A DNA stretch of 64,000 nucleotides from Leptolyngbyaceae cyanobacterium (GTDB lineage Bacteria; Cyanobacteriota; Cyanobacteriia; Phormidesmidales; Phormidesmidaceae), in assembly GCA_965263355.1 (NCBI GenBank), contig CBDHHL010000056.1, forward strand, positions 864,001 to 928,000, written 5' to 3'. How positions within the stretch are numbered: position 1 is the first letter of the stretch; every line of letters begins with the position of its first letter. Under the pieces are notes generated by a model. It made no database searches. It was not told the origin of the DNA and saw only the letters and a list, made by a program, of their open reading frames with translations. Position numbers and translations under genes: made by a program. This document shows positions 12,081 to 63,106 of this stretch, piece after piece.

Positions 12081-12094
12081 GGCATAAACCTCTT

Positions 12095-12877: not shown

Positions 12878-12911
12878 GGGATTTCTCCTTAAATTTAGAA
12901 AATCTTGAATT

Positions 12912-12927
12912 TACCTATTAGTAGGTA
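12912..12927. promoter_or_regulatory. Putative TetR operator upstream of the SDR-cupin operon
   Basis: Near-perfect palindrome TACCTATTAGTAGGTA; a related copy lies upstream of tetR. Confidence 0.7.
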
Positions 12928-12945
12928 GGTAAATGGGCAAAAAAA

Positions 12946-14245: not shown

Positions 14246-15658
14246 CTAAAGCTTAACTAGTGTGCGCTCATCAGCATTTGTATCCATTGGGGTGTCTATT
14301 TTCCAGGTTTCAATCTCTACATCTCTCATCACACTCTCGATCTCTTCATTAGCATATCGGTGCATTAATGGATCTGAAATGGGAATTTGGTAGGCATGGG
14401 GCTGAAACAAACCATAGGGGGTGACACGATAAATCTTGTCGAAGTTGCGATAGTATCCACCCAGATCCACATAGTCCCATCCATTACGCTTCTGCAACAA
14501 TCCGTACAATGCTGAAGCTGTTATGCAGGCAAATAGATTGGAGAGAGGATTCCGTCCTTTCTGGGCAGTCAAGGGGGTCTGAGAGAAATCAATAAACCAC
14601 TGTTTCACACCATCTGGGAAGACAATATTTAGTTGGTAAACAATATTCCAACGAAAATGTTCCCGAAAGAGAGAATAACGCAATTCTTGAATAAAGGTGA
14701 CTAAATCATTTGCGATCGCATCCTCAATCGCTTCACTCATTAGTTTAATGTCATAGTTCTCAGGGTTGCCATCGACCAATTTGTCGGCAATGGCTACGGG
14801 ATAGAAATCTAACTCATTGCGATCGTCTCTGATCTGTTTAACAAAGGAGCAACCACCGGTTTGATGGTTATAGTTAGTCTGATCAAATTCAATCGAATCA
14901 CCAGGCTCTAACGGAAAGACCTTATCCTCCAAATCAGGACAAATATGTTGCACATCTTGGCAAAACTTCTCCCGAGTAACCGGAAAAACAATCTGATTCA
15001 AAAATGCACTACCATTCACATACTTAAAGGCATTGGCCCCTGGAGAAATTGCTTTAGGGTTAATCAGACTAATGTTGTATAGCAGCTGGCCATACTGATC
15101 ATAGGGAAATGCCAGACTCCTATTGTACTGATAGTTGCACTCCATCATGGGCTGCCAAGTAGCCAACAAAAAGTCAATTTGAGGATACTGGCCCAGAATA
15201 AAGGCAGTTGTATCAAGGCTCAATTCTGTATCTACGCAATTCCAGAAAACCCCTGACTCATCCTGTAGTAAAACACCAAACTCAGGTACGCGATTTTCAC
15301 TTCGGGTTGACAGGAAGTTGGTCGAACCACCAATTTCTAATTCTTGAAATTCATCAATGGCGTATATTTTCTTGTAGCCCAACTTTTTTAATGAGCCCTC
15401 GATCAATTCATCCCTGGGAATAATTACTTCCACGGTTTTAGGCAGATGGGCAAGGGAACGAATATCAAAATGATCTAAATGTTTGTGAGAGATTATAAGA
15501 ATGTCAAAATCCGGGATGTTGTCAATCAGGACATCGCGTTTAGGGCAGACATCTAAAATGCCCTCTTGATGAGGATCCCAAAGGACAGGATCCATCATAA
15601 ATTTAGCATCTTGAGTTTCGATAAAAATAGACGCATGACCAATCATGTCAATTTTCAT
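14246..15658 (-). CDS. Metallo-beta-lactamase-fold protein (UlaG/CMAH-like N-terminus)
   Basis: GHASIFIE...DPVL and HxHxDH motif SHKHLDH. Confidence 0.85.
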   Translation of the reverse strand: MKIDMIGHASIFIETQDAKFMMDPVLWDPHQEGILDVCPKRDVLIDNIPDFDILIISHKHLDHFDIRSLAHLPKTVEVIIPRDELIEGSLKKLGYKKIYAIDEFQELEIGGSTNFLSTRSENRVPEFGVLLQDESGVFWNCVDTELSLDTTAFILGQYPQIDFLLATWQPMMECNYQYNRSLAFPYDQYGQLLYNISLINPKAISPGANAFKYVNGSAFLNQIVFPVTREKFCQDVQHICPDLEDKVFPLEPGDSIEFDQTNYNHQTGGCSFVKQIRDDRNELDFYPVAIADKLVDGNPENYDIKLMSEAIEDAIANDLVTFIQELRYSLFREHFRWNIVYQLNIVFPDGVKQWFIDFSQTPLTAQKGRNPLSNLFACITASALYGLLQKRNGWDYVDLGGYYRNFDKIYRVTPYGLFQPHAYQIPISDPLMHRYANEEIESVMRDVEIETWKIDTPMDTNADERTLVKL

Positions 15659-15768
15659 AATTTTTTACCTCCTAAAAAACGTGAGTTGAATCTGAATCAG
15701 ATTGCGTGATTAAGTAAAGTCAGTTGTAAATCAATGTAGAATTCTGGCCGAAAACATGCTCATCTAAA

Positions 15769-16641
15769 CTAGGCTGTGGTCGCTGTTTTCTCTAGGGTTA
15801 GCCTAGCCGCACTAATCTCAGGCATATAGGTTTGAACAACATTGTCTAGAAGGCTATCTTGGCCTTCTACCAGGGCATACTCAGCCGCTACATGATCAAT
15901 ATTGGACGCATTGATGAAATTTTCGGTCAGCGAGATTCCGGCCTCCAGATTTCTCACTTGATGCCACCATTGGCTGGGGGTGAACATAAGGTCACCAGCT
16001 TCCTGAATACAGGTATAGCCTTCAACATTTCTATATTGTGGACAGACCTCTAAATCCACATTAAAACCATCGATAGAGCCACCATTGAGATTATCCGTTT
16101 CATTGGCTGGATAAAACAACCACTCTTTTTTTCCACTCAACACAGCATTCCATGCTGACGTGCCCATTACATCACGATGCATGGGAGAACTCGTATTTTT
16201 AGCCCCAATATACATCCAGCGCAGGCTGTAGTCAGCGGCTTCACCTTGGAATAACTCTGGAGGTATCCGTCTCACCCAATTTTCAAAGTAATCGGGCACC
16301 GTATAGTCATCCAACAGCTCAGGGTAATCGCTACTAAATGTCCAGTCTGCTAAATAGTAAGGAGGCGTATCTTGGGTATTTTTTGCGTAGTCCAGATATT
16401 CAGCCAGCAAAAAATTTCGTTTATCCTCTCGATTCTTACCTCGACTGGCCACAACCTGGGTTTGACCATATCGTTGAACAAACTCTTGTCCAGTCCATTT
16501 CTGATAAGCAGGCCATTGTTTTGCCACACCACGAATCACTACCGGCTTACTCTTCAAGAGATAGTGATTGATAATTGTTGGGAAATCAGCTTTTTCTAAA
16601 ACATCAACAGGTTGTAGGGTAGGATAATTAGTCAAGTTCAT
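15769..16641 (-). CDS. JmjC (cupin_8) Fe(II)/2-oxoglutarate oxygenase, JMJD6-like
   Basis: KPVVIRG...WPA, RWMYIG...MHRD..GTSAWNAVLSGKKEW and PSQWWHQV (HxD...H triad). Confidence 0.9.
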   Translation of the reverse strand: MNLTNYPTLQPVDVLEKADFPTIINHYLLKSKPVVIRGVAKQWPAYQKWTGQEFVQRYGQTQVVASRGKNREDKRNFLLAEYLDYAKNTQDTPPYYLADWTFSSDYPELLDDYTVPDYFENWVRRIPPELFQGEAADYSLRWMYIGAKNTSSPMHRDVMGTSAWNAVLSGKKEWLFYPANETDNLNGGSIDGFNVDLEVCPQYRNVEGYTCIQEAGDLMFTPSQWWHQVRNLEAGISLTENFINASNIDHVAAEYALVEGQDSLLDNVVQTYMPEISAARLTLEKTATTA

Positions 16642-16737
16642 ATCAGTAGATTTCCATCTTTATAAAAAATTACGGCTTTTCTAAGCTTGGGTGTGTAAGG
16701 GCATGCTTGCAAGGAGTTAAAAACATTTGAATCAATA

Positions 16738-18072
16738 TCACGAATTCTCACCTGTTGCAGTATCTTGCTCAACTTGCAATAAGGGAGCATGGCGATAGGC
16801 AATAGATGCAGTCATTATGGATAATCCGCCCATAATGATGAACATCAAGCCAATGCCTCGACCTGGCCCGGTTCCAATAATCTGGCCGACCCCCTCCGAC
16901 CAAGGGCCTTCAAACTCCATGGCAGGCTCTAGGATTAAGTCTACGACTGAGCCAGATGATATAGCAGTGATTGTGGCTACCGACGTGATAGCGTTGTTTA
17001 GGGCAAACACCCGGCCTTGTAATTCTGGTGCAACATATTTCTGAAAAATAACTTGAATAGAGCCATCGACAAGTGGTAACGTTGCAAGAAAAAGAAAAGC
17101 GGCCACTGCGATTAGAATTAAGGACGGTCTGACTCCGCTAGCAATTGCTTCCAATCCTCCTAAAAACATACAACCACAAATCACTGGAACTAGGCGCTCC
17201 TGACGGCTTACCCAAGTACCCATCAAAATGCCGCCCACAACTGTCCCTAACTCTGCTGTCGAGATCACAAAACCCAGGGTTTCAGTAGTGGTTAAGTTTA
17301 AAATCAGGGGAACGAACAAAATCGTTCCTACAGTCGATATGAATGCATAAACGGCTCGTACAGTAATTAAACTGAATAACCCGGTTTGGTTAACCAAGTA
17401 AGTCCATCCCTGCTTAATCGGTTGAATAAATGAATTGTTTTCACTATCTACTTCAGGCAAGGACACCTGTAGCTCTGGAATTTGGATGAGTAGAATTGGA
17501 ATAATACCGATTAGAAAGCTAACACAGTTAACCAATAGAATGCCTTGGATCTGGATGATGGTTAGGAGTAATCCAGCTGCCACTGGAGCCCCGAGCTGTG
17601 CGATCGCATCTCCCACACGAGTTAAACCACTGGCCCGGGCTAAATCTTTCGGTTCAACTAATAAGCTAACTGCAGACTTAAATGATAGGCTTTCAAATTC
17701 TGTAAATATGGCACTTAAGCACGTAAAGAGATATATGTGCCATATCTTTAAGGAACCGGTAATGAACAGGACAGCCATGGCCAAAAAGCACGACGCAGAG
17801 CCAATTTCGGAAATAACAATTATCCATCGACGGGACCAACGATCAACAACGACACCTGATAGGGGTGCCAGGAAAAAGGTTGGTAATGTTATGAATAAGA
17901 TACCAAGGGTATAAAAGTTAACCGACTCTGTAGTTTGAAGAATCCAAATATCCAGAGCAAATCTTGCCAGACAGTCGCCGATGGTGGAGACCATAGATCC
18001 TAGCCATAGGAAAACAAATGTATTCATTCCCCTTGCTGCTGGTTTTTCGGTGATGATTGATGATTGGCCCAT
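16738..18072 (-). CDS. MFS efflux transporter (DHA3/MefA-like, NRPS-associated)
   Basis: ~12 TM segments, GVVVDRWSRR, LQGRVFA, GTGPGRGIGL. Confidence 0.9.
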   Translation of the reverse strand: MGQSSIITEKPAARGMNTFVFLWLGSMVSTIGDCLARFALDIWILQTTESVNFYTLGILFITLPTFFLAPLSGVVVDRWSRRWIIVISEIGSASCFLAMAVLFITGSLKIWHIYLFTCLSAIFTEFESLSFKSAVSLLVEPKDLARASGLTRVGDAIAQLGAPVAAGLLLTIIQIQGILLVNCVSFLIGIIPILLIQIPELQVSLPEVDSENNSFIQPIKQGWTYLVNQTGLFSLITVRAVYAFISTVGTILFVPLILNLTTTETLGFVISTAELGTVVGGILMGTWVSRQERLVPVICGCMFLGGLEAIASGVRPSLILIAVAAFLFLATLPLVDGSIQVIFQKYVAPELQGRVFALNNAITSVATITAISSGSVVDLILEPAMEFEGPWSEGVGQIIGTGPGRGIGLMFIIMGGLSIMTASIAYRHAPLLQVEQDTATGENS

Positions 18073-18240
18073 AATTTCCTTAAACTAAGAGCAAAGAGTG
18101 AATACGTCCTCATGCTCATTTTCCCTAACTTATCTAACGTCACCTAATAGTCAGCAACTACAAATCAGCATTCATAATGATTGAGCAATTTTCCTGTCAG
18201 GGATATACCTAATTCAAGATTCCTCATAACTATTCAGCCT

Positions 18241-20202
18241 TTAAGTTGGATAATCTCCAACAATCATCCTATAAAAGTCATTATTTTTCCCAAGTTCAAT
18301 GGCTCCTTCATATGACAAGTGCCCAGCATCTCTATATAATAGGGCTGAATCAAGGTGGGTTTGACATCGCAATGAATTGCATGTCAGTTTATCGACACGG
18401 ACAACACGATAATTATCCTTGATAATATCTAACAAATCATAGGCTCTTAAGCGACTAAATCGCATCTCATCCACAGCGAAATCGCACGCATCTAAGTCTA
18501 TTCCCATCCATGCGGCGTGTTCTAAGCAGTGACCTAAATCATTGCCATTGGAAGCTGGGGGAGAAAAGACGACAGGAGTGATTCCCATTATTTCTAGCTC
18601 ATTAAGTGTATTGGTTAACTCTTTGAGAGCAATCTGAAAACCAGCATTCAAAAACTCTCCATTGCGAGACAGAAGGGTACTATTTTCTGATAAAAATCTA
18701 TTATCTAAAGGGGAGGATAGTACGGCATACTTAACTGTATTGTTTGTTTTTAACCAGTCACGAACTTTGCCGGAAAAATCAAGGCATCCTTCAGACCAGC
18801 TGATAGTCTGGTCCGGTGGCTCGAAAGATGCAATATCAAAAAAAGGAGAACAGACTCTTTTAGTCATCTGAATGATTTTTGCATCGGGATTAGATGCCAT
18901 AATCGCTGGCACTAAATGCATTGCAAACGAGTCTCCCCAAACGACAATTTCTGGCTGATCACTTGTCCTACAATCAGGCGACAGTGTGAAAGAATTGTCA
19001 CAAACATTACTCAATCCGGAACTGAGTTCTCGATTGTTTACCATGGCTTGATTAGAGGGCCCCCTATGGGTGATTCGGGCACTGAACCCACCCGTAATGT
19101 CGCCAGCCCACCCTAACAAAGCCAACAGTAACAGTCCAGCGATCGCCAATGAAGTCACTATTTTTGTTTCTACACTTTTTCTAAATGGCGTTTCTACATA
19201 CTTCCAGCTCAAATAGGCGAGGGGAAATAGCAGTACAACCAATCCAGCTAACAGTAAACTATTAGGCTCAGTTAAACTTCGATGCCTAGCAAACGCAAAA
19301 ATAGAATGATGCCAAAGATACAAACTATAGCTAATTAAACCAATCCCGACCAATATGTTCGTTCCGAGCAATTGACCAACTAAGGTCTCTGATGAAGAAA
19401 ATAAAATAATAAGCCCTGCTCCGACCGTTGGTATTAAAGCATGGAAACTAGGAAACGGAGTAGCATGATTAAACGCATAGATCGAATATCCAATCATCAG
19501 TAGACCAATCAAGCTTATGACTTCATTGATAGCTCTACGATCAAATAGAAGAGTAAATCTGGATCTTCCATATAAAAGCAAAAATGCAATAATTGCACCA
19601 ATGGCAAACTCCCAGGCTCTTGTTGGCAGAATGAAGAAGTTTGCTGAAGGATGGTGAAATGCTTCCCACTGTGATAGACCTAGACTTGTAAGCGCGATGA
19701 GCATCAAGGACGTAAATATCCAACGCTTCTGTAAGCGCCACATTAGAAGTAGAAACAGTGGAAAGAGAAGATAGTATTGTTCTTCAATGGCTAAACTCCA
19801 AGTATGTAAAAGTGGCTTAAATTCATTGCTTGTTTCCCAATATCCTGTTTCTTGCCAGAAAAAAATATTTGAAGCAAATATAGAAACTGCTATCAGGCTA
19901 CGGGAAAAGGCTTTCATGTCCCATTCTGGTAGCCAAAACCAGGCAAAAATTAGGGAAGCAAGCGTTACTAAGAATAGTGCAGGGAAAATACGCCTGATCC
20001 GTCGCTCATAGAAGTTGAGTAAGGAAAACGTGCCCTGCTCTTTCTCAGTAAAAATTATGGTTGTAATCAGATAACCACTGATAACAAAAAAGACATCTAC
20101 TCCAATAAATCCACCTCTAAAATACTGACATCCTGCATGAAACAAAATTACCGAAATCACCGAAATAGCTCTAAGGCCATCAATTTCAGGACGATATTTC
20201 AT
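18241..20202 (-). CDS. Acyltransferase family 3 + SGNH domain (OafA/YrhL-like O-acyltransferase)
   Basis: YRPEIDGLRA, GVDVFFVISGYLIT and HTWSLAIEEQYY; SGNH motifs GDSFA and DAGHLS. Confidence 0.93.
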   Translation of the reverse strand: MKYRPEIDGLRAISVISVILFHAGCQYFRGGFIGVDVFFVISGYLITTIIFTEKEQGTFSLLNFYERRIRRIFPALFLVTLASLIFAWFWLPEWDMKAFSRSLIAVSIFASNIFFWQETGYWETSNEFKPLLHTWSLAIEEQYYLLFPLFLLLMWRLQKRWIFTSLMLIALTSLGLSQWEAFHHPSANFFILPTRAWEFAIGAIIAFLLLYGRSRFTLLFDRRAINEVISLIGLLMIGYSIYAFNHATPFPSFHALIPTVGAGLIILFSSSETLVGQLLGTNILVGIGLISYSLYLWHHSIFAFARHRSLTEPNSLLLAGLVVLLFPLAYLSWKYVETPFRKSVETKIVTSLAIAGLLLLALLGWAGDITGGFSARITHRGPSNQAMVNNRELSSGLSNVCDNSFTLSPDCRTSDQPEIVVWGDSFAMHLVPAIMASNPDAKIIQMTKRVCSPFFDIASFEPPDQTISWSEGCLDFSGKVRDWLKTNNTVKYAVLSSPLDNRFLSENSTLLSRNGEFLNAGFQIALKELTNTLNELEIMGITPVVFSPPASNGNDLGHCLEHAAWMGIDLDACDFAVDEMRFSRLRAYDLLDIIKDNYRVVRVDKLTCNSLRCQTHLDSALLYRDAGHLSYEGAIELGKNNDFYRMIVGDYPT

Positions 20203-20359
20203 TTTTTACGCATCAGTAATGGTGAAGTTTATAAATTATAGATTTCTTATCACTAAACTTAGTTGAAAAAACTTCAATATATTGTAGCCCTGAGCACGAT
20301 ATTTTCTGTCTCCATCCCTAATTAACATGCATTTTTATCAACCTGAGAATAAGTGCAAC

Positions 20360-21256
20360 CTATTTCCTCACACTCATCCTCTTAATACCCATCTTCTTAG
20401 ATACCGGTAAGTTCATTTCTGGAATATATTTCCGCATTACGGCATCCAATGCAGTGTCACGCCCTAAAGTCAATTGATAGTAAGTAGATACAGCATCAAC
20501 ATTAGAGTGATTAATGAAGTTTTCCGTTAAGGATATGCCAGCTTCCAAATTTCTTACCTGGTGCCACCATGAGCTGGGAGTAAATACTACATCACCAGAT
20601 TCCTGAATACAGCTATACCCCATTGCTTTTTTGAACTTGGGATAGAGAGTAGCGTTCACATTAAAGCCATCAACTGGACTATTGTAACGATTCACTGGGT
20701 AAAGATTTTCAGTCTCATCGCCTGAGTAAAATAGCCAAGCTTTTTTTCCACTCAAAACAGCATTCCAAGCAGACGTATCTAATACATCACGATGCATCGG
20801 TGAACCAGTATTTTTTGCACCAATATACATCCAGCGTAGAAAGTAATCGTAATCTTTTCTCTTAAGAAGATGTGCAGGGATACGCCTTATCCAGTTTTCA
20901 AAATAATCTGGAATATCATAATCATTGATCAGTTCAGGGTAATCAGAGGCAAACCGCCAGGCAGATAAATAATAAGGACGCTCATCTGTAGTAGTTTGCA
21001 TATACTCCAAGTAATCAGAGAGTGTAAAAATTTTCTCTTCTAGCTTGGGCACATGTATCCTAGCAATAACTTGAACCTTACCATAGGTTTGGATAAACTC
21101 TGGACTTGTCCATTTTTTATAAGCAACCCATTCCTTCGCAATTCCTCGTAGTAATACAGGTTTACCCTTTAAAACATACTGCTCCATGACTGTTTGATAG
21201 TCTGGATTGTCTAAAATATCGACAGGCTGTAAGTTATCGTTTGGAGCTACATTCAT
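20360..21256 (-). CDS. JmjC (cupin_8) Fe(II)/2-oxoglutarate oxygenase, JMJD6-like; paralog of 15769..16641
   Basis: RWMYIGAKNTGSPMHRDVLDTSAWNAVLSGKK and PSSWWHQVRNLEAGISLTENFIN. Confidence 0.9.
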   Translation of the reverse strand: MNVAPNDNLQPVDILDNPDYQTVMEQYVLKGKPVLLRGIAKEWVAYKKWTSPEFIQTYGKVQVIARIHVPKLEEKIFTLSDYLEYMQTTTDERPYYLSAWRFASDYPELINDYDIPDYFENWIRRIPAHLLKRKDYDYFLRWMYIGAKNTGSPMHRDVLDTSAWNAVLSGKKAWLFYSGDETENLYPVNRYNSPVDGFNVNATLYPKFKKAMGYSCIQESGDVVFTPSSWWHQVRNLEAGISLTENFINHSNVDAVSTYYQLTLGRDTALDAVMRKYIPEMNLPVSKKMGIKRMSVRK

Positions 21257-21337
21257 AATAAGTGACGGGGCAAAGGAAAAACTGAGGAAGCGAGACGATT
21301 TGGTTTGAGAAATTCTTGCGCTATTACTTGAGAATAA

Positions 21338-24300
21338 TCAATTGAGGTAGGCTTGGAGCTGTTGTGCTAAAACTTTTACATGCTGAGGATCACGCATCAT
21401 AGACATGTGGTCTCCAGGTACCCAATCAAAGGTGACTTGCTGAGCTAAATCATGCCAACCCAATGTTGGGTCATCGGCCTGGTTGGCAACACCATCCTTA
21501 GCTTGCAGTAGGACTAATTCTCCGGAATAAGGTTGTGGGACATAGGTTTGTGCGGCTTGTTCATGTCCGGTTTGAACTTGAACAATACAATTTAATTGTT
21601 CTACCCCAAAGCCTGGGCTCAAGGAGATATTACGTCGCTCGGCTTCCGAGATAATGTAGGTGAGCTGATCTTCCCAGCTCATCGTGCGTAAGTGGCGATT
21701 TAACCCATTGAGTTCATCGGAGGGCAACGCAAGGTGACGACCGACGAGTTCAGCTAACAGGTCAGTCGCATCAGGAATTTGATCAACCGCCATCAAGGAG
21801 TTCACATCCATAAAAATCAGACGAGGCGGTTGTTCGCCATTACGCGTTAGTTGCTGAGCCATTTCCCAGGCAATGGTTCCTCCCAAACACCAACCCGCTA
21901 GATGGTAAGGGCCTTCAGGTTGAACTGTTTTGATCACTTGAAGGTAGTCCTTAGCCATGGTCTCAATGCTATTGTCGGCGGGTTGACCGGGTTCAAAACC
22001 GCGTGCTTCTAAACCATAGATGGGACGGTCCTGGCCCAGGTACGAGACGAGCTTTTGATAGTTCAAAACACTGCCACCACCAGGATGGATCAGGAACAGC
22101 GGTGGCAAGGTTCCCTGGGGTTGTAATGGTGTGAGCGGTGACCAAGTTGGGGGCTCACTACCCTGTTGGATGGTTTGCTGCAATAGCATGGCCTGCTGTT
22201 CAATGGTTGCTCCCTGGAATAGGGTCACCAGGGGTAGGGTATGCCCAAGCTTCTCGTGGATACGGGACATTAACGATACGGCCAGGAGAGAATGGCCTCC
22301 GAGATCAAAGAAGTCGTCTACGATGCCGATGGATTCTACCTTGAGTACCTCAGACCAAATCTGGCTGAGCTGTAACTCTAAATGGTTGCGGGGTGCAACA
22401 AATAGCCGATCGGATGGAGGCTGATATTCTGGAGCGGGTAGAGCCTTGCGGTTGATTTTGCCGTTAGGGGTTAATGGTAAGGCATCCAAATATACGAAGG
22501 CATTTGGCACCATGTAGTCTGGTAGTTGTTCTTTGAGAAACTCTCGTAGGGAGATCGGGGAAATATCTTCATTAGAGGTCACTACGTAGACCACTAACTG
22601 CTTATTGCTGGGGTCATCGGCTCGGACGATTGCGATCGCTTCCCGCACCTGAGGATGTTTCTGAAGTGTAGCTTCCAGTTCACCCAGTTCAATCCGGAAC
22701 CCTCGCAGCTTAACCTGTTGGTCACGACGTCCCAAGAATTCTACATTGCCATCTGCTTGATAACGGGCCAGATCGCCAGTGCAGTATAACCGTCCTGGGC
22801 CAAAGGGATTGCGGATAAACTTCTCAGCCGTCAGCTGAGGACGATGTAAATACCCCAGACTCAGACCCGCGCCCCCAATATATAGGTCTCCAGTCACGCC
22901 CACGGGCACGGGCTGCATGGCCGGATCGAGAACATATAGCTGGGTATTGGCAAAGGGCCGACCAATGGGAACGGCCACATCGGCAGCATTATCATCTCCC
23001 TGGAGTTCAAAATAACAGCTATCAATAGTTGCTTCGGTAACGCCGTAGGAATTGATCAATCGCGTTTGCTCGCCACAGATGCGGCGGAACTTCTGGTATT
23101 CAGCCATGGACCAGAAATCAGAGCCCACCACTAAAACCCTCATAAAATTAAGGTTTTGGTGGCTGTTTTCCAGGTAGTTAGCCAGTTGTCTAAAGACAGC
23201 GGGGACAAATTCTGCACAGTCCACAGCTTCTCGGCAGATCAGACTGTAAAGCTGTTCGGCATCCAGCAGAATTTCCCGAGGACAGAGCACCAGCTTGGCA
23301 CCGGAACAGAGGGCTCGTACCCAATCTCCAGTAAATACATCAAAGGAGAAGCTGGCCATTTGTAAATGGCTGGAAGTACGCTGCTTGAGCTGGTACGCAT
23401 CTTCCCAGGCAAAATAGGCGTTTACCAAGCTGCGATGAGCCACCGCCACCCCCTTGGGTTGGCCCGTTGAGCCAGAGGTGTAGATGACATAGGCACGGCT
23501 ATCTTGGGCCACGGGTGCCACGGGATTCCCCACGGGGGCATGGACAATATCTTGATGGGTATCTAAACAAATCACCTGGGCATCCTGCTGCGGCAGACGA
23601 TCTAGACCAGATTTTTGCGTAATCAACACCGAGACAGCGGCATCCTGCAGCATGTAAGCAATACGTTCCTGGGGATACCGAATGTCCAGGGGAAGGTAGG
23701 CCGCGCCCACTTTGAGAATGGCTAAGAGACTGACAAGTAGTGCTGGAGAACGTTCCAGATAGATACCCACCAGGGTGTCGCTACCGACACCCTGGGCCTG
23801 AAGAGTATGGGCTAGCTGATTAGCTTGGGCATTTAACGCCTGATAGGTTAGCGTGTCCCCATTAAAAACAACGGCAATGGCATCTGGCTGGCGTTCAACC
23901 TGTTGTTCAAACAGTTGGTGAATACACAAATCTTGGGCATAGGTGACCTGGGTGTCGTTCCATGACACCAGGACTTGCTGCCGTTCCGCCTGACTGAGCA
24001 AGGGTAGCTGGGTAACCTGTAACTGGGGCTGAGCTAAAATTCCAGCTAGAAGAATTTGGAAATGGCGGGTTAGGCGCTCAATAGTGTCTGGCTTGAATAA
24101 ATCGGTACTGTATTCCCAAATGCCTTCAATGCCAGCCTCACTTTCTGTCATGGTGAGGGTGAGGTCAAACATCGCCGTGACAGTTTCAGGCTCCAGGGTG
24201 GTCATGGTGAGACCAGGCAACTCTAAGGCCGCATTGGATGAGCTGTGCCAGTCAAACATCACCTGAAACAGGGGAGAATGGCTCAGATTACGATCGGGTT

Positions 24301-27300
24301 GTACCGCCTCGACAACTTGCTCAAAGGGAACATCCTGATGGCTGTACCCCCCTAAGGCTGACTGCCGCACTTGTTCCAGGAGGTCTGTAAAGGTGAGACT
24401 GTCGGTGAGCTGAGATCGCAACGCTAGCGTATTGACAAAAAAGCCAATCAACCCTTCAATTTCAGACCGGTTACGGTTAGCAATGGGGGTGCCCACGACA
24501 ATGTCATCTTGACCACTGTAGCGATGCAATAACAGACTAAAGGCCGCAAACAGCACCATAAATAGAGTTGTTCCTGTGGTCTGAGCCAGTCGTTTGAGCT
24601 GTGGACATAGCTCTGGGGAAAGAACAAATGTTTGCTGTTGTCCCCGATAGGTTTGCTGAGCCGGTCGAGGATAGTCTGTGGGTAACTCCAATAGAGCAGG
24701 TGCATCGGTTAGATAGTCCTGCCAGTAGGCCAGTTGCCGTTGTAGTACATCGCCCTGCAACCACTGGCGCTGCCAATGGGCAAAATCTCTATATTGAAGC
24801 GTTAACCCTGGCAATGGTGACGATTGCCCCTGGGTAAAGGCACTATAAAGTGTTGTTAGCTCCTGAATCAGGATGCCCATGGACCATTCGTCGGCCACAA
24901 TGTGGTGCATCGTGGCTAACAGAATATGGTCCTCAGCCGCAACCTTTAACAAAACGGTTCGTAGCAGCGGAGCCTTGGCCAGATCAAAGGGGGTGTGGGC
25001 ATTCTCCGCTAGCTGCTGCTGAATACGACGCGTCTGTTCATTGACCTCCACTGTCTGTAGGTCAACCAGCTCCAGGTCGAGGGACACCGCTGGCTCAATC
25101 CACTGCATCGGTGTCCCCCCATGATTGCGAAAATAGGTCCGCAATATTTCGTGACGTTGCACCAGTTCATCTAGGGCCTGCCCCAGCGATGGGATATCCA
25201 ACGGTCCCTGGAGTTGAATGGCCAGGGGCATGTTATACGTCGAATTGGGACCCTCTAGCTGATCTAAAAACCACAATCGTTCCTGGGCCCAGCTGAGGGG
25301 CAGTGGCTGGTCAGCGACATGCGGAATCGGAACAATGGGAGGGGCGACCTGTTCTTGATCGCCGGTTAAAGTGTCGTGAATTAAGGTGGCTAGTTCTGCA
25401 GGGGTGGGGGCTTCGAATAGGGCACGGAGAGGAATTTCAGTCTGAAACGTCTGCCGTAGTCTAGAAACAACCTGAGTTGCCAAAAGAGAATGTCCACCCA
25501 ATTCAAAGAAACTATCATAAGCACCCACCAATGGTGCCTGAGTATCCTGGCTAAGAACGATGGCAAAACTATCTGCAATTGCCTGCTCAATGGGAGTCCT
25601 TGGAACCACCATATCTGCCGTCTGACTTACGTCTACCGTGGGGGTTGGCAAAGCACGGCGATCGACTTTGCCATTGGGTGTCAGCGGTAATTTTTCTAAG
25701 AATGTAAAGGCTGAAGGCACCATATGGGCCGGTAAGGTCTGCTTCAAAAACTGTCGCAGGTCCTTCGCAGAGAGGGCAGGCTCGGTTGGCACCACATAGG
25801 CTGCCAGATAGCTGGACCCTGGCTGATCGTCCCGAGCCACAACAATGGCACCACTGACTTGGGGATGGCCTAATAGGACTGCCTCTAGCTCTCCCAACTC
25901 AATCCGGAAGCCCCGAATTTTGACCTGATTATCTGAGCGGCCTAAAAATTCAATATTGCCATCCGCTCGGTAGCAGGCTAAATCCCCGGTCTTATATAAA
26001 CGCCCTTCACCAAACGGATTGGGAATAAACCGTTCTGCGGTGAGATCATCACGGTGTAAATATCCACGGGCTAAGCCTGCTCCACCAATATGCAGTTCGC
26101 CCACAACCCCCAAGGGCACAGGCTGCGCCCGTTGATCCAACACGTGTAATTGGATATTAGAGAACGGACGACCAATGGGCACCGCCATGTCCTGGGGCCA
26201 TGCCATGGCAGTATCCCCCGGTGCTTCAAAGTAGCAACTGTCAATAGTTGCTTCTGTGACACCATAGGAATTGATCAAACGGGTTTGAGGTCCACAAATT
26301 TGCCGGAATCGCTGATATTCCCCCATCAGCCAGAAATCAGACGCCACTACCAAAACAGTCATAAAGTCCAGGGTCTGTTCTGTAGTATCTAGATAACTCA
26401 CCAGTTCTCTAAATACAGCGGGGACAAACTCTGCACAATCCACAGCTTCCCGACACATAAGCTGATACAAGAGCGCAGATTCCAGCAAAATTTCCCGAGG
26501 ACACAGCACAAGCTTTGCCCCAGAGCAAAGGGCCCGTACCCAGTCTCCGGTAAATACATCAAAGGAGAAACTGGCCATCTGTAAATGACTGGATGTCTGC
26601 TCCCTCAAATGATACGCCGCTTCCCAGGCAAAGTAAGCGTTGACCAGACTACGATGAGCAACCGCAACCCCCTTTGGTTGACCGGTGGAGCCCGAGGTGT
26701 AAATAACGTAGGCCAGATTATCCTTAGTTGTTGATAGGCTGAGATTCTCAGCAGGATGCTCCAAGCGCTGCTGGTTATCATCGATTAACAGAACAGGGGC
26801 ATTAGCGTGAGTTACAGACGCGGGGAGCGCATCTAAACAAGATCGCTGACTAATTAGGACGGTTACTCCTGCATTCTCCAGCATGTAAGCAATGCGCTCT
26901 TTGGGATAGCTGCTTTCCAGAGGCAAGTAAGCTCCCCCCGCTTTTAGGACGGCCAAAACACTGATGAGCAAATCGGGGGAACGCTCCAGGCAAATACCCA
27001 CCATGGCATCGGGGCCAACCCCAACGGATTGAAGTTCATGGGCTAACTGGTTTGCTTGCTGATTTAATTGTTGATAGGTTAACGTTCTCTCCCCTGAAAC
27101 TAGCGCGATGGCCTCGGGGGTGCGCTCAACCTGTTGTTCAAACAGCTGATGGATACCCTCTGTTGGCGAATAGCTGAGGGTGGTGTCGTTCCAGCTGATA
27201 AACTGTTGCCGTTCCGCATCCGTAAGCAATGGAAACTGGCTGATATTGGCGGTGGGGTTGGCTAAAATGCCTGCCAACAGGGTCTCAAAATGTTGGGTTA

Positions 27301-30300
27301 AACGAATAATTGTGGCTTGTTCAAACAGGTCGGTATTGTACTCCCAAATACCCACTATCTTTGCGTCTTCCTCAACCATGGTGAGGGTCAGGTCGAACTT
27401 AGAGGTGACATCATTGGTATGTACAAAGTTCATCGTCAACCCTAATACATCCATGGATCTATTCGCAGCGCTTTCCCAATCAAACATCACCTGGAAGAGC
27501 GGCGAGTAGCTCAGGTTACGTTCCGGTCGTAGGGCTTCTACCACTTGCTCAAAGGGAACATCCTGATGACCATAGCTACCCAGAGCGCCTTGGCGAATTT
27601 GTTCCAAGATATCTAGGAAGGAAAGATTGTTGGAGAATTGCGATCGCAACACCAACGTATTAACAAAAAAGCCAATTAATTGTTCAACCTCTGTGCGATT
27701 ACGATTCGCAATGGGGGTCCCAACCGCAATATCCTCCTGACCGCTATATCGATGGAGTAAGAGGCTAAACGTAGCAAGCATTACCATAAATGGCGTTGCG
27801 CCCGTTGACTCTGCCAGTTGCTTGAAAGGCTGTATCAACTCCTGAGCCAGAGTGAACTGATAGGTTTGTCCCCGATAGGTTTGCACCGCTGGTCGGGGGT
27901 GATCCGTAGGTAGTTCTAGCAGGGGGGGCAAATCGGCCAAATAGTCACGCCAATAGTCCAACTGCTGTTGTAAAACCTCATCTCGCAACCACTGCCGTTG
28001 CCACTGGGCAAAGTCCGCATACTGAATGGTTAATGGCGGTAGGGGGGAGGGTTGACCCTGGGCAAAGGCTCGATAAAGGGTCTGTAACTCCCGAATAATG
28101 ATCTCATCAGACCATGCGTCGGACACAATATGGTGTCGAATAATCAACAGAAGATAGGCTTCAGGCGCTTGCTGCACAAGTCTTACCCGTATTAGCGGCG
28201 GTGCTGACAAGTCAAAAGGCGTTTGATTTTCCTCAGTAATCTGCTGCTGGAGCCGCGTTTCTAACTCAGTAGGGGATACCCCTTGCAGATCCACGAACTG
28301 TAACTGAAATGGAACGGTTGGCAGAATAACTTGTATGGGAGAAGCACTATCCTCGGATTGAAAGCAGGTACGCAGCACTTCATGGCGCTGAATAATTTCC
28401 TCAAACGCCTGGTTGAGTGAATCCACATCCAGAGGACCTTGAACCTGTAAAGCCGTGGACATGTTGTATGTGGTACTGGGACCCTCAAGTTGATTTAGGA
28501 ACCATAGACGCTCCTGTGCCCAACTTAGGGGTACGGGGGTATCTGCATCTCTCGGAATCGGAACAATTGGCGGTGCGGTTTCTACTAACTCCTCGGTTAG
28601 CACCTCGTCAATCAGCAAACTTAGCTCCATCACAGTGGGAGCCTCAAACAGGGTGCGTAGGGGAATCTCCAGTTGAAAGGCCTGTCTGAGCCTAGAAATT
28701 GCCTGGGTTGCCAGGAGAGAATTGCCGCCTAGTTCAAAAAAGTTTTGCTGGATGCTAACCGCATCAAAACCCAGAACATTCGCAAAGATATCAGCCGTTG
28801 TCTGTTCTGTTGGATTAGAGGGAGCTACAAAACTTACGTCGTTCTCAAGCTGCGTCGGTGGTAGTGGGAGGGCACGCTGATCAACTTTGCCATTGGGGGT
28901 GAGGGGCAACCCATCAAGCTGCACAAAGGCTGACGGCATCATGTAATTTGGCAGCTGGACCTTGAGAAAGTTGCGGAGATCGTTCGGATTAATCTGCTCG
29001 TCCGAACTAACGAAATAGGCAACCAATCGCTGGTTGCCGGGAGTATCTTCTCGAACAATGGCAACACTTTGTTGAATTCGAGGATAGGCCGATACAGCTG
29101 CCTCAATTTCCCCAAGTTCGATACGAAACCCCCGAATTTTGACTTGATTATCAATACGACCTAAAAATTCCAGATTCCCATCTGGAAGATAGCGAGCCAG
29201 ATCTCCAGTTTTGTAAAGACGCCCAGAATCAAAGGGATTATCAATAAATCGCTCGGCAGTTATGTCAGGGCGATTTAAATAACCGCGAGCCAACCCGGCA
29301 CCGCCCACATGAATTTCTCCAGTAACACCAATGGGTACGGGCTGTAACTGAGAGTTCAGTAGATAAACCTGAACATTACGAATCGGTTTACCAATTGAGA
29401 TTTCTTGTGCTTGAGTCGTGTCTGAATCAGGCGGTGTTAGAAAACAACTGGTAGCAACAATGGTCACTTCTGTGGGACCGTAATTATTAACCAACAGAGG
29501 GCGGTCTAATCCGTTCTGACTCCAACGATCAGCAATAGTCTTGTGCCACCGTCGCACATGTTCTAACCGTGCCTTTTCCCCGCCTAAAATCACTAGCCTT
29601 AGGAGCTTGGGGATCTCCCATACAGCCAGTGCTAATTCATCAACTAATTGATGCCAGTAGGCAGTAGGCAAATCTAGAATGCTTAGTTGCCACTGCTGGC
29701 AGGCTTGCATCAGTCCGGGACCAGACGTTAGGAATTCATCGGTGCGTAGAATCAGAGTGGCACCACAGGTCAGACCGGTATAGATTTCCTCTGCGGAGGC
29801 GTCAAAGCTGATGGAGGCAAATTGGAGAATACGGTCATTTTCATTGATGCCATATTCGGTACGTAGCGATTGGGAAATCTCTAGCAGGGCTCCATGGGGC
29901 GTCATTACCCCCTTGGGTTGTCCGGTTGAACCGGAGGTATAAATAATGTAAACGAGATTTTCCAGGCTTACTCCACTGGTGGGATTGTTGGTTGGTTGGG
30001 CTGCGATCGCAGCCCAATCTGTATCCAGACAAACAACCTGTGATTGATGGTCTGGCAAACCAGCTACCAATGATTCCTGAGTCACCAGCACAGATACAGC
30101 TGAATCAGAGAGGATATACGCCGAGCGCTCCCTGGGATAAGTTGGATCTAACGGCACATAAGCCCCACCGGCCTTAAGAATGCCAAAGATACCCACCATC
30201 ATATTGAGGGAGCGCTCAATAGAAATGCCCACCAGCACATCGGGCCCCACTCCCAAACCCCGTAAATGATGGGCCAGCTGATTCGCCAGACTGTTTAACT

Positions 30301-31807
30301 CTGCATACGTTAGATGCTCCTGGCCAAATTCTATCGCTAACTTATCAGGTGTTCGCTTTACTTGAGATTCAAACAATTCATGGACACACAGCCTTTCGGG
30401 ATAAATTTGCGCCGTGTTATTCCAGTCCACCAATAGCTGATGCCGTTCTGCTTGAGTCAGTAATGGCATCTCTCCCACAGGCAACTGCGGTGTTTCTAGA
30501 ACCGCTTCCAATAACATCGAAAAATGGTTCACCATACGGCGAACAGTCTCTGCCTTAAACAAATCAACGTTATATTCCCAAATCCCTGTTAACCCCTCTG
30601 GGGTTTCTTGCATCGTCAAAGTCAGATCAAACTTCGATGTGGTCTCTTCAAATTCAAGAGGAGATAGGGTTAGCCCCGGCAGCTCAAGATTACCTTCAGG
30701 TGCATTTTGCAGGACAAACATGACCTGAACCAAAGGACTGTAACTCGGTGAACGCTCCACATTCAGAGCATCCACAACATGAGAGAAGGGCAAATCCTGA
30801 TGCACATAAGCATCAAGGGTCATCTGACGAACCTGGCGCAAAAGCTCTTCAAACGTTGAGTTCTCATCAATTTGTAGCCGTAGCGCTAAAGTATTCGCAA
30901 AAAAGCCGATGAGAGATTCAAATTCCTTCCGAGTACGGTTTGCAATCGGAGAACCAATCACCATATCTTTCTGGCCACTGTAACGGCATAGCAGAGTACC
31001 GAATACAGCAAGCAGTAACATAAACAGAGTAGTCTTCTGTTGTTGAGCCAACTGTTTTAAGCGTTGGCTCAAATCCATCCCCAGATTAAACGTAACAGTC
31101 TGCCCCTGGCCTGTTTGCACTGCAGGGCGAGGGTGATCGGTTGGTAGCTCAAGTAAAGTAGGAGCCTCAGTCAACTGGTTGGTCCAATAGTTTAATAATT
31201 TGTCAAGGGTCGGTCCTAATAAAAGTTCTCGCTGCCAATCAGCAAAGTCGCCATATTGAATGGCTAATTCTGGCAAAGTCGGTAATTTGCCTTGGCAGTA
31301 AGCTGGATAAAGAACAGAGATTTCCTTCACCATTACGCCAGTTGACCAAGCATCGGCGATAATATGATGTAACGTGAGCAAGAGTACGTGTTCAGTTGGC
31401 TCTAGACGCAGCAACTGAACTCGCACCAAATACGACTGACCCAAGTCAAAACCAGTCGTTTCCTCTTCCATCGCCCGTCGCTTCACTTCAGTGGCGGCAG
31501 CAGCTGGTTCTAGAGAACTCAAATCAATCAGTGGAAAATCTAACCAGGCTGTGGGAGAAATAACCTGAACCGCGACATTATCAATAACTTCAATGGTTGT
31601 CCGTAGAACTTCATGACGTTCTTGAATGGTCTGGATAGACTGCCTCAAAGCCTCAACATTCAGCTCGCCCTGCAGACGAATTACGGAAGAAATATTGTAG
31701 GCTGCACTCTCTGGATCCATTTGGTAAAGAATCCAGAGACGCTCCTGGGTATACGATAGCGGGTAAATAAAAATTTCTTCCGATAGGGGCGAGACTGTCA
31801 TGACCAA
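21338..31807 (-). CDS. Terminal NRPS: C-A(Lys/Arg-like)-T-C-A(Orn-like)-T-C-A(Orn-like)-T-TE
   Basis: Three HHxxxD C motifs, three YTSGSTG A domains, T motifs GGNSL/GGHSL/GGHSL, TE GWCLGG...GDH. Hand-read codes are DAEDIGNIVK, DVGEVASIDK and DVGEVGSIDK. Confidence 0.95.
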   Translation of the reverse strand: MVMTVSPLSEEIFIYPLSYTQERLWILYQMDPESAAYNISSVIRLQGELNVEALRQSIQTIQERHEVLRTTIEVIDNVAVQVISPTAWLDFPLIDLSSLEPAAAATEVKRRAMEEETTGFDLGQSYLVRVQLLRLEPTEHVLLLTLHHIIADAWSTGVMVKEISVLYPAYCQGKLPTLPELAIQYGDFADWQRELLLGPTLDKLLNYWTNQLTEAPTLLELPTDHPRPAVQTGQGQTVTFNLGMDLSQRLKQLAQQQKTTLFMLLLAVFGTLLCRYSGQKDMVIGSPIANRTRKEFESLIGFFANTLALRLQIDENSTFEELLRQVRQMTLDAYVHQDLPFSHVVDALNVERSPSYSPLVQVMFVLQNAPEGNLELPGLTLSPLEFEETTSKFDLTLTMQETPEGLTGIWEYNVDLFKAETVRRMVNHFSMLLEAVLETPQLPVGEMPLLTQAERHQLLVDWNNTAQIYPERLCVHELFESQVKRTPDKLAIEFGQEHLTYAELNSLANQLAHHLRGLGVGPDVLVGISIERSLNMMVGIFGILKAGGAYVPLDPTYPRERSAYILSDSAVSVLVTQESLVAGLPDHQSQVVCLDTDWAAIAAQPTNNPTSGVSLENLVYIIYTSGSTGQPKGVMTPHGALLEISQSLRTEYGINENDRILQFASISFDASAEEIYTGLTCGATLILRTDEFLTSGPGLMQACQQWQLSILDLPTAYWHQLVDELALAVWEIPKLLRLVILGGEKARLEHVRRWHKTIADRWSQNGLDRPLLVNNYGPTEVTIVATSCFLTPPDSDTTQAQEISIGKPIRNVQVYLLNSQLQPVPIGVTGEIHVGGAGLARGYLNRPDITAERFIDNPFDSGRLYKTGDLARYLPDGNLEFLGRIDNQVKIRGFRIELGEIEAAVSAYPRIQQSVAIVREDTPGNQRLVAYFVSSDEQINPNDLRNFLKVQLPNYMMPSAFVQLDGLPLTPNGKVDQRALPLPPTQLENDVSFVAPSNPTEQTTADIFANVLGFDAVSIQQNFFELGGNSLLATQAISRLRQAFQLEIPLRTLFEAPTVMELSLLIDEVLTEELVETAPPIVPIPRDADTPVPLSWAQERLWFLNQLEGPSTTYNMSTALQVQGPLDVDSLNQAFEEIIQRHEVLRTCFQSEDSASPIQVILPTVPFQLQFVDLQGVSPTELETRLQQQITEENQTPFDLSAPPLIRVRLVQQAPEAYLLLIIRHHIVSDAWSDEIIIRELQTLYRAFAQGQPSPLPPLTIQYADFAQWQRQWLRDEVLQQQLDYWRDYLADLPPLLELPTDHPRPAVQTYRGQTYQFTLAQELIQPFKQLAESTGATPFMVMLATFSLLLHRYSGQEDIAVGTPIANRNRTEVEQLIGFFVNTLVLRSQFSNNLSFLDILEQIRQGALGSYGHQDVPFEQVVEALRPERNLSYSPLFQVMFDWESAANRSMDVLGLTMNFVHTNDVTSKFDLTLTMVEEDAKIVGIWEYNTDLFEQATIIRLTQHFETLLAGILANPTANISQFPLLTDAERQQFISWNDTTLSYSPTEGIHQLFEQQVERTPEAIALVSGERTLTYQQLNQQANQLAHELQSVGVGPDAMVGICLERSPDLLISVLAVLKAGGAYLPLESSYPKERIAYMLENAGVTVLISQRSCLDALPASVTHANAPVLLIDDNQQRLEHPAENLSLSTTKDNLAYVIYTSGSTGQPKGVAVAHRSLVNAYFAWEAAYHLREQTSSHLQMASFSFDVFTGDWVRALCSGAKLVLCPREILLESALLYQLMCREAVDCAEFVPAVFRELVSYLDTTEQTLDFMTVLVVASDFWLMGEYQRFRQICGPQTRLINSYGVTEATIDSCYFEAPGDTAMAWPQDMAVPIGRPFSNIQLHVLDQRAQPVPLGVVGELHIGGAGLARGYLHRDDLTAERFIPNPFGEGRLYKTGDLACYRADGNIEFLGRSDNQVKIRGFRIELGELEAVLLGHPQVSGAIVVARDDQPGSSYLAAYVVPTEPALSAKDLRQFLKQTLPAHMVPSAFTFLEKLPLTPNGKVDRRALPTPTVDVSQTADMVVPRTPIEQAIADSFAIVLSQDTQAPLVGAYDSFFELGGHSLLATQVVSRLRQTFQTEIPLRALFEAPTPAELATLIHDTLTGDQEQVAPPIVPIPHVADQPLPLSWAQERLWFLDQLEGPNSTYNMPLAIQLQGPLDIPSLGQALDELVQRHEILRTYFRNHGGTPMQWIEPAVSLDLELVDLQTVEVNEQTRRIQQQLAENAHTPFDLAKAPLLRTVLLKVAAEDHILLATMHHIVADEWSMGILIQELTTLYSAFTQGQSSPLPGLTLQYRDFAHWQRQWLQGDVLQRQLAYWQDYLTDAPALLELPTDYPRPAQQTYRGQQQTFVLSPELCPQLKRLAQTTGTTLFMVLFAAFSLLLHRYSGQDDIVVGTPIANRNRSEIEGLIGFFVNTLALRSQLTDSLTFTDLLEQVRQSALGGYSHQDVPFEQVVEAVQPDRNLSHSPLFQVMFDWHSSSNAALELPGLTMTTLEPETVTAMFDLTLTMTESEAGIEGIWEYSTDLFKPDTIERLTRHFQILLAGILAQPQLQVTQLPLLSQAERQQVLVSWNDTQVTYAQDLCIHQLFEQQVERQPDAIAVVFNGDTLTYQALNAQANQLAHTLQAQGVGSDTLVGIYLERSPALLVSLLAILKVGAAYLPLDIRYPQERIAYMLQDAAVSVLITQKSGLDRLPQQDAQVICLDTHQDIVHAPVGNPVAPVAQDSRAYVIYTSGSTGQPKGVAVAHRSLVNAYFAWEDAYQLKQRTSSHLQMASFSFDVFTGDWVRALCSGAKLVLCPREILLDAEQLYSLICREAVDCAEFVPAVFRQLANYLENSHQNLNFMRVLVVGSDFWSMAEYQKFRRICGEQTRLINSYGVTEATIDSCYFELQGDDNAADVAVPIGRPFANTQLYVLDPAMQPVPVGVTGDLYIGGAGLSLGYLHRPQLTAEKFIRNPFGPGRLYCTGDLARYQADGNVEFLGRRDQQVKLRGFRIELGELEATLQKHPQVREAIAIVRADDPSNKQLVVYVVTSNEDISPISLREFLKEQLPDYMVPNAFVYLDALPLTPNGKINRKALPAPEYQPPSDRLFVAPRNHLELQLSQIWSEVLKVESIGIVDDFFDLGGHSLLAVSLMSRIHEKLGHTLPLVTLFQGATIEQQAMLLQQTIQQGSEPPTWSPLTPLQPQGTLPPLFLIHPGGGSVLNYQKLVSYLGQDRPIYGLEARGFEPGQPADNSIETMAKDYLQVIKTVQPEGPYHLAGWCLGGTIAWEMAQQLTRNGEQPPRLIFMDVNSLMAVDQIPDATDLLAELVGRHLALPSDELNGLNRHLRTMSWEDQLTYIISEAERRNISLSPGFGVEQLNCIVQVQTGHEQAAQTYVPQPYSGELVLLQAKDGVANQADDPTLGWHDLAQQVTFDWVPGDHMSMMRDPQHVKVLAQQLQAYLN

Positions 31808-32632: not shown

Positions 32633-32695
32633 ATTAGATCCGCCAGATAATTTAAACCTTACCCTGCCCAGAACGGTCGTTCTTCCAGTATTGGA

Positions 32696-48902: not shown

Positions 48903-48903
48903 G

Positions 48904-52689: not shown

Positions 52690-52693
52690 GTCC

Positions 52694-61309: not shown

Positions 61310-61618
61310 AATTAAAATATTGGTATTTAGAAATTAATTATATGACAAGCTTAAAATTAAAATATTGGTATTTCCCGAAAGCCACGGCCAGATTGTGGGT
61401 CTGGAAGTGCAGGCTGCCACAGCTGGCGGACAGCTAGCGTGGATAGATCAAACCCTACAAACTCAACTGCCGCCATTTGCCTTTGTGCTAGCGCAGTTGG
61501 ATATTCGCCACCGGCCTATTGTCAACGAACAATGGCATCCTTTTAAGGAGCAAAGTCGCTCGTCAAGCAGAAGTGGCTAATGCTTAAAATTAAAATATTG
61601 GTATTTAGAAATTAATTA
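61089..61618 (+). repeat. Tandem duplication (~250 bp, 283-bp period) of the GH13 3' end and downstream spacer
   Basis: 61089-61340 is repeated at 61372-61618; the second copy lacks CTCTG. This produces the spurious ORF 61365..61580. Confidence 0.95.
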
Positions 61619-61630
61619 AGCAAACATTAT

Positions 61631-63082: not shown

Positions 63083-63106
63083 TCATTTCATTTTAACTCA
63101 ACGAAC

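Follow-up and report, generated by a model that had tools for sequence, protein, structure and literature searches.

A cysteine thioesterase at the end of a cyanobacterial lipopeptide synthetase and the side-chain lactam it may close

Among known thioesterase (TE) domains about 2% have a cysteine nucleophile, and what these enzymes require is poorly understood (PMC13288461). MacB-TE has Cys89 and Asp116 and closes a macrolactam on the side chain of 2,4-diaminobutyrate (Dab); hydrolysis by the wild type is undetectable, and the C89S mutant mostly hydrolyses (PMC13288461). BulbE-TE has Cys961, Asp988 and His1097, with the Asp after strand beta6, and makes a 15-atom lactam. Its Ser mutant hydrolyses and forms no ring, and both variants yield hydrolysis products (PMC11536411). 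ObiF1 has Gly1173 at Cys+27 and carries its Asp 30 residues before the His (PMC6668435). SulM is marked by a Gln-Cys-Asn motif, a position-II Asp after beta7, a basic sulfamate pocket, a module for 2,3-diaminopropionate (Dap) and a sulfotransferase (PMC11298585). This work concerns the terminal TE of a nonribosomal peptide synthetase (NRPS) in 64,000 nucleotides of Leptolyngbyaceae cyanobacterium contig CBDHHL010000056.1 (positions 864,001 to 928,000), a stretch we call the window. We believe this TE is a member of the known Cys-type TEs with Asp at position I, apparently working on an undescribed lipopeptide family, and that its relatives point to the amine it may use.

The TE closes a 3489-residue NRPS encoded at 21338-31807 on the minus strand. 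The domain itself covers 270 residues (21341..22150), is recognised by Pfam PF00975 and by its match to AB3403 (4zxh), and has a Cys-His-Asp triad. The initial annotation reported a GWCLGG motif, a TGT codon at 21887-21889 and retained Asp and His, and all of these are found as it described them. The plus strand reads ACA at this codon and the minus strand TGT, which encodes Cys88 within Gly-Trp-Cys-Leu-Gly-Gly. Sequence, alignment and model agree on Asp115 (21806..21808, in IFMD), at Cys+27 or position I, and on His248 (21407..21409, in GDH), the catalytic base. An AlphaFold model of the domain (predicted local distance difference test, pLDDT, 88.1; predicted template modelling score, pTM, 0.86) has strands 83-87, 110-114 and 236-244 preceding Cys88, Asp115 and His248. 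The Cys thus occupies the nucleophile elbow that follows beta5, and the Asp and the His come after beta6 and beta8. The top PDB sequence match among the best 60 of 63 (E <=10) is AB3403 from Acinetobacter baumannii (4zxh, E 4.6e-31), and the top fold match among those listed is AB3403 again (Z 27.8, root mean square deviation 2.5, 258 residues, 28% identity). AB3403 (PDB 4ZXH/4ZXI) is like the window TE in its GWCFGG motif and in pairing Cys with an Asp after beta6 (PMC11298585). It differs in being a single C-A-T-TE module (condensation, adenylation, thiolation and TE domains) with an undefined product, and at 28% identity it is uninformative on the ring.

The cysteine is real and inherited. 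Contigs from runs X1 (depth 6.1) and X2 (depth 29) show 0 differences over 21200-23200, and a 251-nucleotide contig, X6, which agrees across the Cys codon and reaches 17 bases past it, was left out of this count. X1 and X2 come from one study and may be the source of the window itself, so inheritance in relatives is the stronger proof. All five of the closest TE rows, which are 93, 69, 51, 48 and 47% identical, retain the Cys, and a Leptolyngbya TE (L002), 66% identical, also has this Cys. Over loci L001-L080, which were in part chosen via a Cys-containing pattern, it is encoded by TGT 23 times and by TGC 9 times. A sequencing error or a private mutation of TCT is ruled out by the identical contigs, the Cys in relatives and the two codons. 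A maximum-likelihood TE tree, built with the nucleophile column removed from 56 rows (48 distinct, the gappy row L080 excluded), places the window TE in an 11-row clade (support 100/99) nested in a 29-row clade (99/99) in which all but three rows are Cys. The named members of this clade are all cyanobacteria. In one member, P0132, Phe replaces the nucleophile and Tyr the His; it is apparently a dead TE and sits beside the two Ser revertants described below.

The initial annotation called Cys-TEs uncommon. This is right for known TEs at large, but around this query Cys is frequent: 54 of 321 TE rows from protein searches have it, as do 79 of 391 once loci partly selected by the Cys pattern are added, a neighbourhood biased towards the query. 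On a fast tree of these 391 rows there are at least 20 changes between Cys and Ser. The presence of Cys at the nucleophile is by itself no surprise here.

The same annotation proposed release through lactam formation, and by analogy with the characterised enzymes this is likely. The characterised Cys-TEs with Asp at Cys+27 form lactams and stop cyclising when the Cys is mutated to Ser, and both MacB and BulbE share this layout with the window TE. MacB-TE (macolacin) and PmxB-TE (polymyxin) are like it in the spacing of 27 between Cys and Asp and in being acidic, and they form a side-chain-amine macrolactam on a cationic lipopeptide, with loss of cyclisation in the Ser mutant (PMC13288461). They were compared by published features, PmxB through the MacB paper, rather than by sequence alignment, and their ring spans seven residues, Dab4 to residue 10, where the ring we predict spans three. 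BulbE-TE, of the bulbiferamides, shares the Asp at Cys+27 after beta6 and the lactam product, but its nucleophile is a Trp indole nitrogen and no Trp code is seen in the window modules (PMC11536411). In the window substrate, nitrogen nucleophiles are predicted from three amine-type adenylation (A) domain codes and an aminotransferase. The window TE is acidic (isoelectric point 4.75; residues 116-137 hold 4 acids and zero Lys or Arg), which as in MacB may fit a cationic substrate, though it would suit any amine-rich one. That the Cys is merely inherited, without a special role, and that the TE hydrolyses its substrate to a linear acid, seems quite improbable to us. The frequent exchange of Cys and Ser and the undefined product of AB3403, the nearest solved relative, agree with it, as do the hydrolysis products of both BulbE variants. 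But MacB-TE hydrolysis is undetectable and BulbE-TE does cyclise (PMC13288461, PMC11536411), and the family's one reversion from Cys to Ser coincides with the absence of diamino modules.

ObiF (obafluorin) and SulM (sulfazecin) were also offered as analogues. They resemble the window TE in the Cys nucleophile, and a sulfotransferase gene does lie in the wider locus, but the analogy fails in four respects: motif, residue at Cys+27, basic pocket and Dap code. SulM-TE and ObiF1-TE use an Asp after beta7, and ObiF1 has Gly at Cys+27 where the window TE has Asp115. SulM has Gln-Cys-Asn where the window TE has Trp-Cys-Leu, and its basic pocket contrasts with the acidic stretch 116-137, a comparison made by residue offset and not by SulM alignment; by the same kind of offset Cys+31, +36 and +40 are Leu, Gln and Ala. 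The last SulM code, SulA3 DVWEMNADD, is of Dap binding mode 3, and the last window code, DVGEVGSIDK, is of mode 2 (PMC12042044). An ObiF-type enzyme needs a beta-hydroxy amino acid in the last module, where the window has a code of the ornithine (Orn) or Dab type, although the JmjC enzymes might still hydroxylate that residue later. Neither the SulM nor the ObiF1 TE is among the best 60 of 63 PDB matches (E <=10) or the 50 fold matches listed. Asp219, which sits 29 residues before His248, was considered as a SulM-like position-II signature but is not diagnostic: an acid fills its column in 217 of 299 Ser TEs and 46 of 79 Cys TEs, and Asp115 already fills position I.

The initial annotation tied the Cys to two terminal diamino modules. 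Three amine-type modules in fact precede the TE, with codes DAEDIGNIVK, DVGEVASIDK and DVGEVGSIDK, and the tie does not hold. Among 124 proteins with a recognised TE motif and last A domain, 9 end in an Orn/Dab-type module, and 7 of these have Ser; the 2 with Cys are the window protein and its 93% orthologue. The orthologous Cys-TEs follow Gly, Ala, Asn and Dap codes. Terminal diamino acids as the cause of the Cys are further ruled out by the Dap-ended loci L028, L039, L050, L074 and L075, which have Ser TEs. Four of these (L028, L039, L050 and L074) form a well supported TE branch with P0186 that combines terminal Dap codes with Ser among Cys neighbours, contrary to what SulM would lead one to expect.

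We believe the orthologous clusters point instead to the module third from the end. Their last three codes are Lys/Orn/Orn in the window, Lys/Orn/Dap in Symploca SIO2C1 (G001), Dap/DARHFSLMVK (Asp)/Asn in Leptolyngbya LEGE 11479 (G002), Lys/DARHFSLMVK (Asp)/Ala-like in a member of the Nostocaceae (G003), Lys/DARHFSLMVK (Asp)/Gly in Brasilonema CT11 (G004) and Dap/DARHFSLMVK (Asp)/Gly in Tolypothrix (G005). An amine-type module, Lys or Dap, is third from the end in 6/6 Cys clusters, the window and P0003 being counted once, whereas five different residues occur in last position and the chain length varies. For G002, G004 and G005 this module has the sole amine-type code seen. As background, 0/24 Ser-TE proteins with at least 3 modules have an amine code third from the end and 26/348 modules have one overall, by a strict classifier (DAEDIGAITK of P0038 was uncounted) and with 118 Orn-selected proteins excluded. 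It is the conservation of this module against a varying last residue that makes it our candidate for the amine source. A side-chain amine was already on the initial annotation's list of nucleophiles, and what the comparison adds is the specific module. In both G002 (L083:2-14442) and G001 (L081:119-11604) a Dap A domain is split across two genes, which in G002 are separated by the sbnA and sbnB genes.

In the window the module third from the end is module 4, whose A domain (28928..30400, minus strand) has the code DAEDIGNIVK and likely activates Lys. The code resembles the Lys code of AptA, DTEQIGSII (PMC9564503 Table 3), and the domain is 54% identical to that of a Brasilonema CT11 C-A-T-E module (E, epimerase), DTEDIGSVI, which is likely AptA. 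Module 5 (A domain 25667..27145, DVGEVASIDK) is of the Orn/Dab type with binding mode 2, and module 6 (22433..23911, DVGEVGSIDK) is also of mode 2 and likely for Orn (PMC12042044). Modules 5 and 6 (22160-28540) share 62% protein identity and 69% DNA identity over 2.3 kb, with 46% to module 4; they may be an old duplication or a joint import.

From these codes we propose, tentatively and at a little under an even chance, that the TE closes a 13-atom lactam between the side chain of the module 4 Lys and the last Orn-type residue. A six-residue lipopeptide would be transferred to Cys88 as a thioester, and the epsilon-amine of the likely Lys, third from the end, would attack this thioester. The peptide would thereby be released with a 13-atom lactam ring of three residues, the last Orn-type residue included. 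A thioester is more reactive than an oxoester towards an amine and no more prone to attack by water. The Cys would matter because it favours amine attack without added hydrolysis, which would help the closure of a small ring. The namalides indicate that a 13-membered three-residue ring including Lys exists, like the one predicted here. They are ureido tetrapeptides with D-Lys and without lipid or Orn (PMC12927552), and no epimerase domain is seen in module 4 of the window. The proposal takes the codes to give the residues, the modules to be used in colinear order, cyclisation to prevail over hydrolysis, and this amine to be the one chosen; the observations behind it are the inherited Cys-His-Asp layout and the module codes themselves.

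The pattern was recorded first, and 389 genomes of the family of G004 were then searched with profile A2. The search gave two more members of the clade, G645 and G643, and both have a Ser nucleophile, GWSMGG. G645 ends in Asn, Asn and DARHFSLMVK, and G643 in Thr, a Gln-like code and DARHFSLMVK; no diamino code is found in the 8 modules of the first or the 6 modules of the second. Their TEs are 84% identical to each other and form one branch (100/100) with the degenerate P0132 inside the Cys clade (100/99). This looks like one reversion from Cys to Ser that coincides with the absence of the amine, and it agrees with the idea of a third-from-end nucleophile. With profile A2, 150 genomes of the family of G002, 52 of the family of G001 and 401 of its order yielded no further core members. 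All that a metagenome scan added was a second copy of the Tolypothrix contig and a fragment of 1.6 kb in which GWCMGG precedes a fatty acyl-AMP ligase (FAAL).

Several points count against the Lys closure. It is a prediction from codes and relatives for a product of which the literature searched held no description, and 4 of the 10 positions in the module 4 code depart from the Lys code of the likely AptA module. Since the six clusters are related to one another, the 6/6 pattern amounts to about two swaps between Lys and Dap, the Ser reversion is a single event, and a Fisher value on such counts does not hold as a probability. The module order of G002 is read from gene order over three proteins, and that of G001 rests on a 95-nucleotide overlap with 2 mismatches between its C19 NRPS and C89 TE fragments. 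G002 and G005 would need strained Dap rings of 10-11 atoms. In a sister Cys clade (L007, L008, L012, L013, L017 and L044) the Lys code belongs to the last module, and a distant Cys-TE, P0163, lacks an amine code in its third-from-end module. The window itself is harder to call than its relatives, since it would also offer a lipid beta-amine and a terminal Orn-type residue; with both Orn/Dab side chains counted, that makes three other amines. Modules 5 and 6 have been replaced relative to its kin, so the choice of ring may have moved.

The lipid beta-amine is the first of these rivals. The window has FAAL, polyketide synthase (PKS) and aminotransferase functions ahead of the NRPS, as in puwainaphycin-type lipopeptides, and the aminotransferase domain would make the beta-amine. 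Cyanobacterial lipopeptides of this FAAL-PKS-aminotransferase kind, such as the puwainaphycins, usually close on the beta-amine. A ring of about 22-23 atoms on the fatty acyl beta-amine would leave the Lys, Orn and Orn side chains free in a cationic cyclic lipopeptide. We consider it fairly unlikely. The cluster contigs of G002, G004 and G005 hold no aminotransferase, matches being on other contigs or absent, and yet their TEs are Cys. The closure site would need to have shifted in the window lineage, and the family pattern indicates the third-from-end residue.

The last residue could also close on itself. Orn thioesters readily close to six-membered rings, and the code of the last module is of the mode-2 Orn/Dab type, so the side chain of the last Orn might attack its own thioester to give a linear lipopeptide with a six-membered cyclo-Orn end. 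The sister Cys clade that ends in a Lys-coded module makes such self-closure look possible; its members have a single Lys-coded module, mostly directly after a PKS gene, and are themselves candidates for caprolactam release. For the window TE we nevertheless find it distinctly unlikely, since 4 of the 6 orthologous Cys-TEs follow Gly, Ala or Asn, which are incapable of such closure, and since the 7 of 9 proteins above with a terminal Orn/Dab-type module and a Ser TE indicate that Cys is unnecessary there. Other closures take up a small remainder.

The sulfotransferase raises a different rival, which the initial annotation had put forward as an N-sulfonated lactam. In this scenario the sulfotransferase would N-sulfonate the carrier-bound terminal diamino acid and the Cys-TE would close an N-sulfonated lactam, six-membered here and a beta-lactam in Symploca. 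The co-occurrence stands: the gene is at 63107-64000 on the plus strand, opposite to the TE, about 41 kb from it and cut by the window end. Among the eight clusters of the family an orthologue is found only in the window and G001, the sulfotransferase query finding no match in G002-G005, G643 or G645, and these two clusters both end in a diamino module. In G002 the amylase-MFS cassette leads directly into a glycosyltransferase, without the sulfotransferase. The last Symploca code, DIWQVTADDK, fits the SulA3-type Dap signature (PMC12042044). However, the distribution of 2/2 against 0/4 gives p 0.067 if the clusters are independent, the two positives are close kin, and in G001 contigs C50 and C19 are linked by synteny only. 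The amylase-MFS-sulfotransferase cassette points away from the FAAL gene, and the same FAAL-divergent cassette flanks a FAAL-PKS-aminotransferase-NRPS cluster, G133, that has a Ser TE and no diamino code.

The enzymes themselves fit this chemistry poorly as well. The Symploca orthologue of the sulfotransferase (72% identity, same setting) ends in an SCP2 domain, and the nearest solved relatives are CurM ST and the tyrosine sulfotransferases. CurM ST and the tyrosine sulfotransferases are O-sulfotransferases. We consider it more likely that the enzyme O-sulfates a hydroxyl. The TE has WCL and not QCN, Asp at Cys+27 and zero Lys or Arg in 116-137, and the last code of the window is not Dap. N-sulfonation of the terminal residue is thus a weak proposal and very improbable in our judgement. 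It would mean that the window and Symploca evolved SulM-like chemistry independently, with SCP2-fused N-sulfonation and a Cys-TE lacking the SulM signatures, which we regard as a long shot of the same order. If true, the window product would be a lipopeptide with a sulfamate-bearing piperidinone and the Symploca product a lipopeptide tipped with a monobactam, a route that would escape SulM-based genome mining. The Dap-ending Symploca line is a better place than the window for this question. Symploca SIO2C1 (L099:3-15659 on C19, L001 on C89, L081 on C50) is the closest named orthologue, has a carbamoyltransferase, a JmjC gene and a second sulfotransferase nearby, and shows two of the SulM features, the Dap code and the sulfotransferase, whereas its TE lacks the SulM signatures. 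Fusions of Sulfotransfer_3 with SCP2 form a family of their own with 99 matches (P0387-P0485), yet only 2 of 401 genomes sampled from the phylum of G001 gave a match (E 1e-50).

In the cluster as a whole, gene order runs downward from 58105 as starter, ACP-aminotransferase with three modules, PhyH, racemase, three modules with TE, and tailoring and export. On the minus strand the lipid starter (45672..58105; domain search and TIGR04020) consists of FAAL-ACP-KS-AT-DH(N half), LLM monooxygenase-DH(C half)-KR-ACP and KS-AT. Its dehydratase is split over two open reading frames (48904-58105), the second of which opens with the LLM monooxygenase; the order FAAL then LLM is repeated in G003, G004, G005 and G643. 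By domain search and codes, the ACP-aminotransferase-(C-A-T)x3 protein with modules 1-3 lies at 33624..45485. An Asp/Glu racemase and a PhyH-type 2-oxoglutarate hydroxylase, with leucine hydroxylase 5nch and the 7dzz group as nearest solved relatives, lie at 31838..33511, and the (C-A-T)x3-TE protein described above, found by domain search, holds modules 4-6; all are on the minus strand. Downstream on the same strand (14246..21256) domain search finds JmjC, acyltransferase-3/SGNH, MFS, JmjC and metallo-beta-lactamase-fold proteins, likely for tailoring or export. The divergent cassette on the plus strand (59195..64000) holds the GH13 amylase-like, MFS and Sulfotransfer_3 genes, the last cut at the window end. 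The GH13 amylase-like gene (59195-61309; L081, L082, L169, L173) is divergent from FAAL in four lipopeptide clusters at 67-72% identity and may encode a glycosidase or transglycosylase for tailoring; a second such gene lies between the NRPS genes of G133. To the left of the cluster, pirin, monooxygenase, isochorismatase, ChrR cupin, SDR and TetR genes (8295-13518) are probably an unrelated stress operon.

The motif-aligned A codes 1-6 are DAHIITHVVK, DATKVGEVGK, DARHFSLMVK, DAEDIGNIVK, DVGEVASIDK and DVGEVGSIDK. We take the first to be Pro-like, for Pro or hydroxy-Pro (Hyp), and the third to be likely Asp, presumably D-iso-Asp or D-Asp by microcystin logic. The mode-2 codes of modules 5 and 6 we read as Orn instead of Dab. 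DATKVGEVGK is Asn by a published table (PMC9564503 Table 3), and DARHFSLMVK was not found in the available part of PMC6562525. The latter code occurs once or twice in most clusters of the family, usually with an Asp racemase gene (31838-32632 in the window); in Symploca the code reads DARHFAFLVK, and no close orthologue of the racemase is found there. The predicted product is beta-amino fatty acyl-(Hyp)-Asn-(D-Asp)-Lys-Orn/Dab-Orn, which may be further hydroxylated, acylated and perhaps sulfated. The literature searched, with most subscription papers outside its coverage, held no description matched to this cluster family and nothing relevant on terminal-Orn lactam TEs or cyanobacterial Cys-TEs.

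This kind of Cys-TE is already known, and what this family adds is a predicted ring site and a natural contrast between Cys and Ser. If the Lys closure is right, the clusters would encode a lipopeptide family without a matched description in that literature, and the TE would be a cyclase for side-chain lactams of 10-14 atoms. We believe that nature has here set up a test of what Cys is for, with six Cys enzymes whose substrates share an amine third from the end and two close Ser revertants that have no diamino module.

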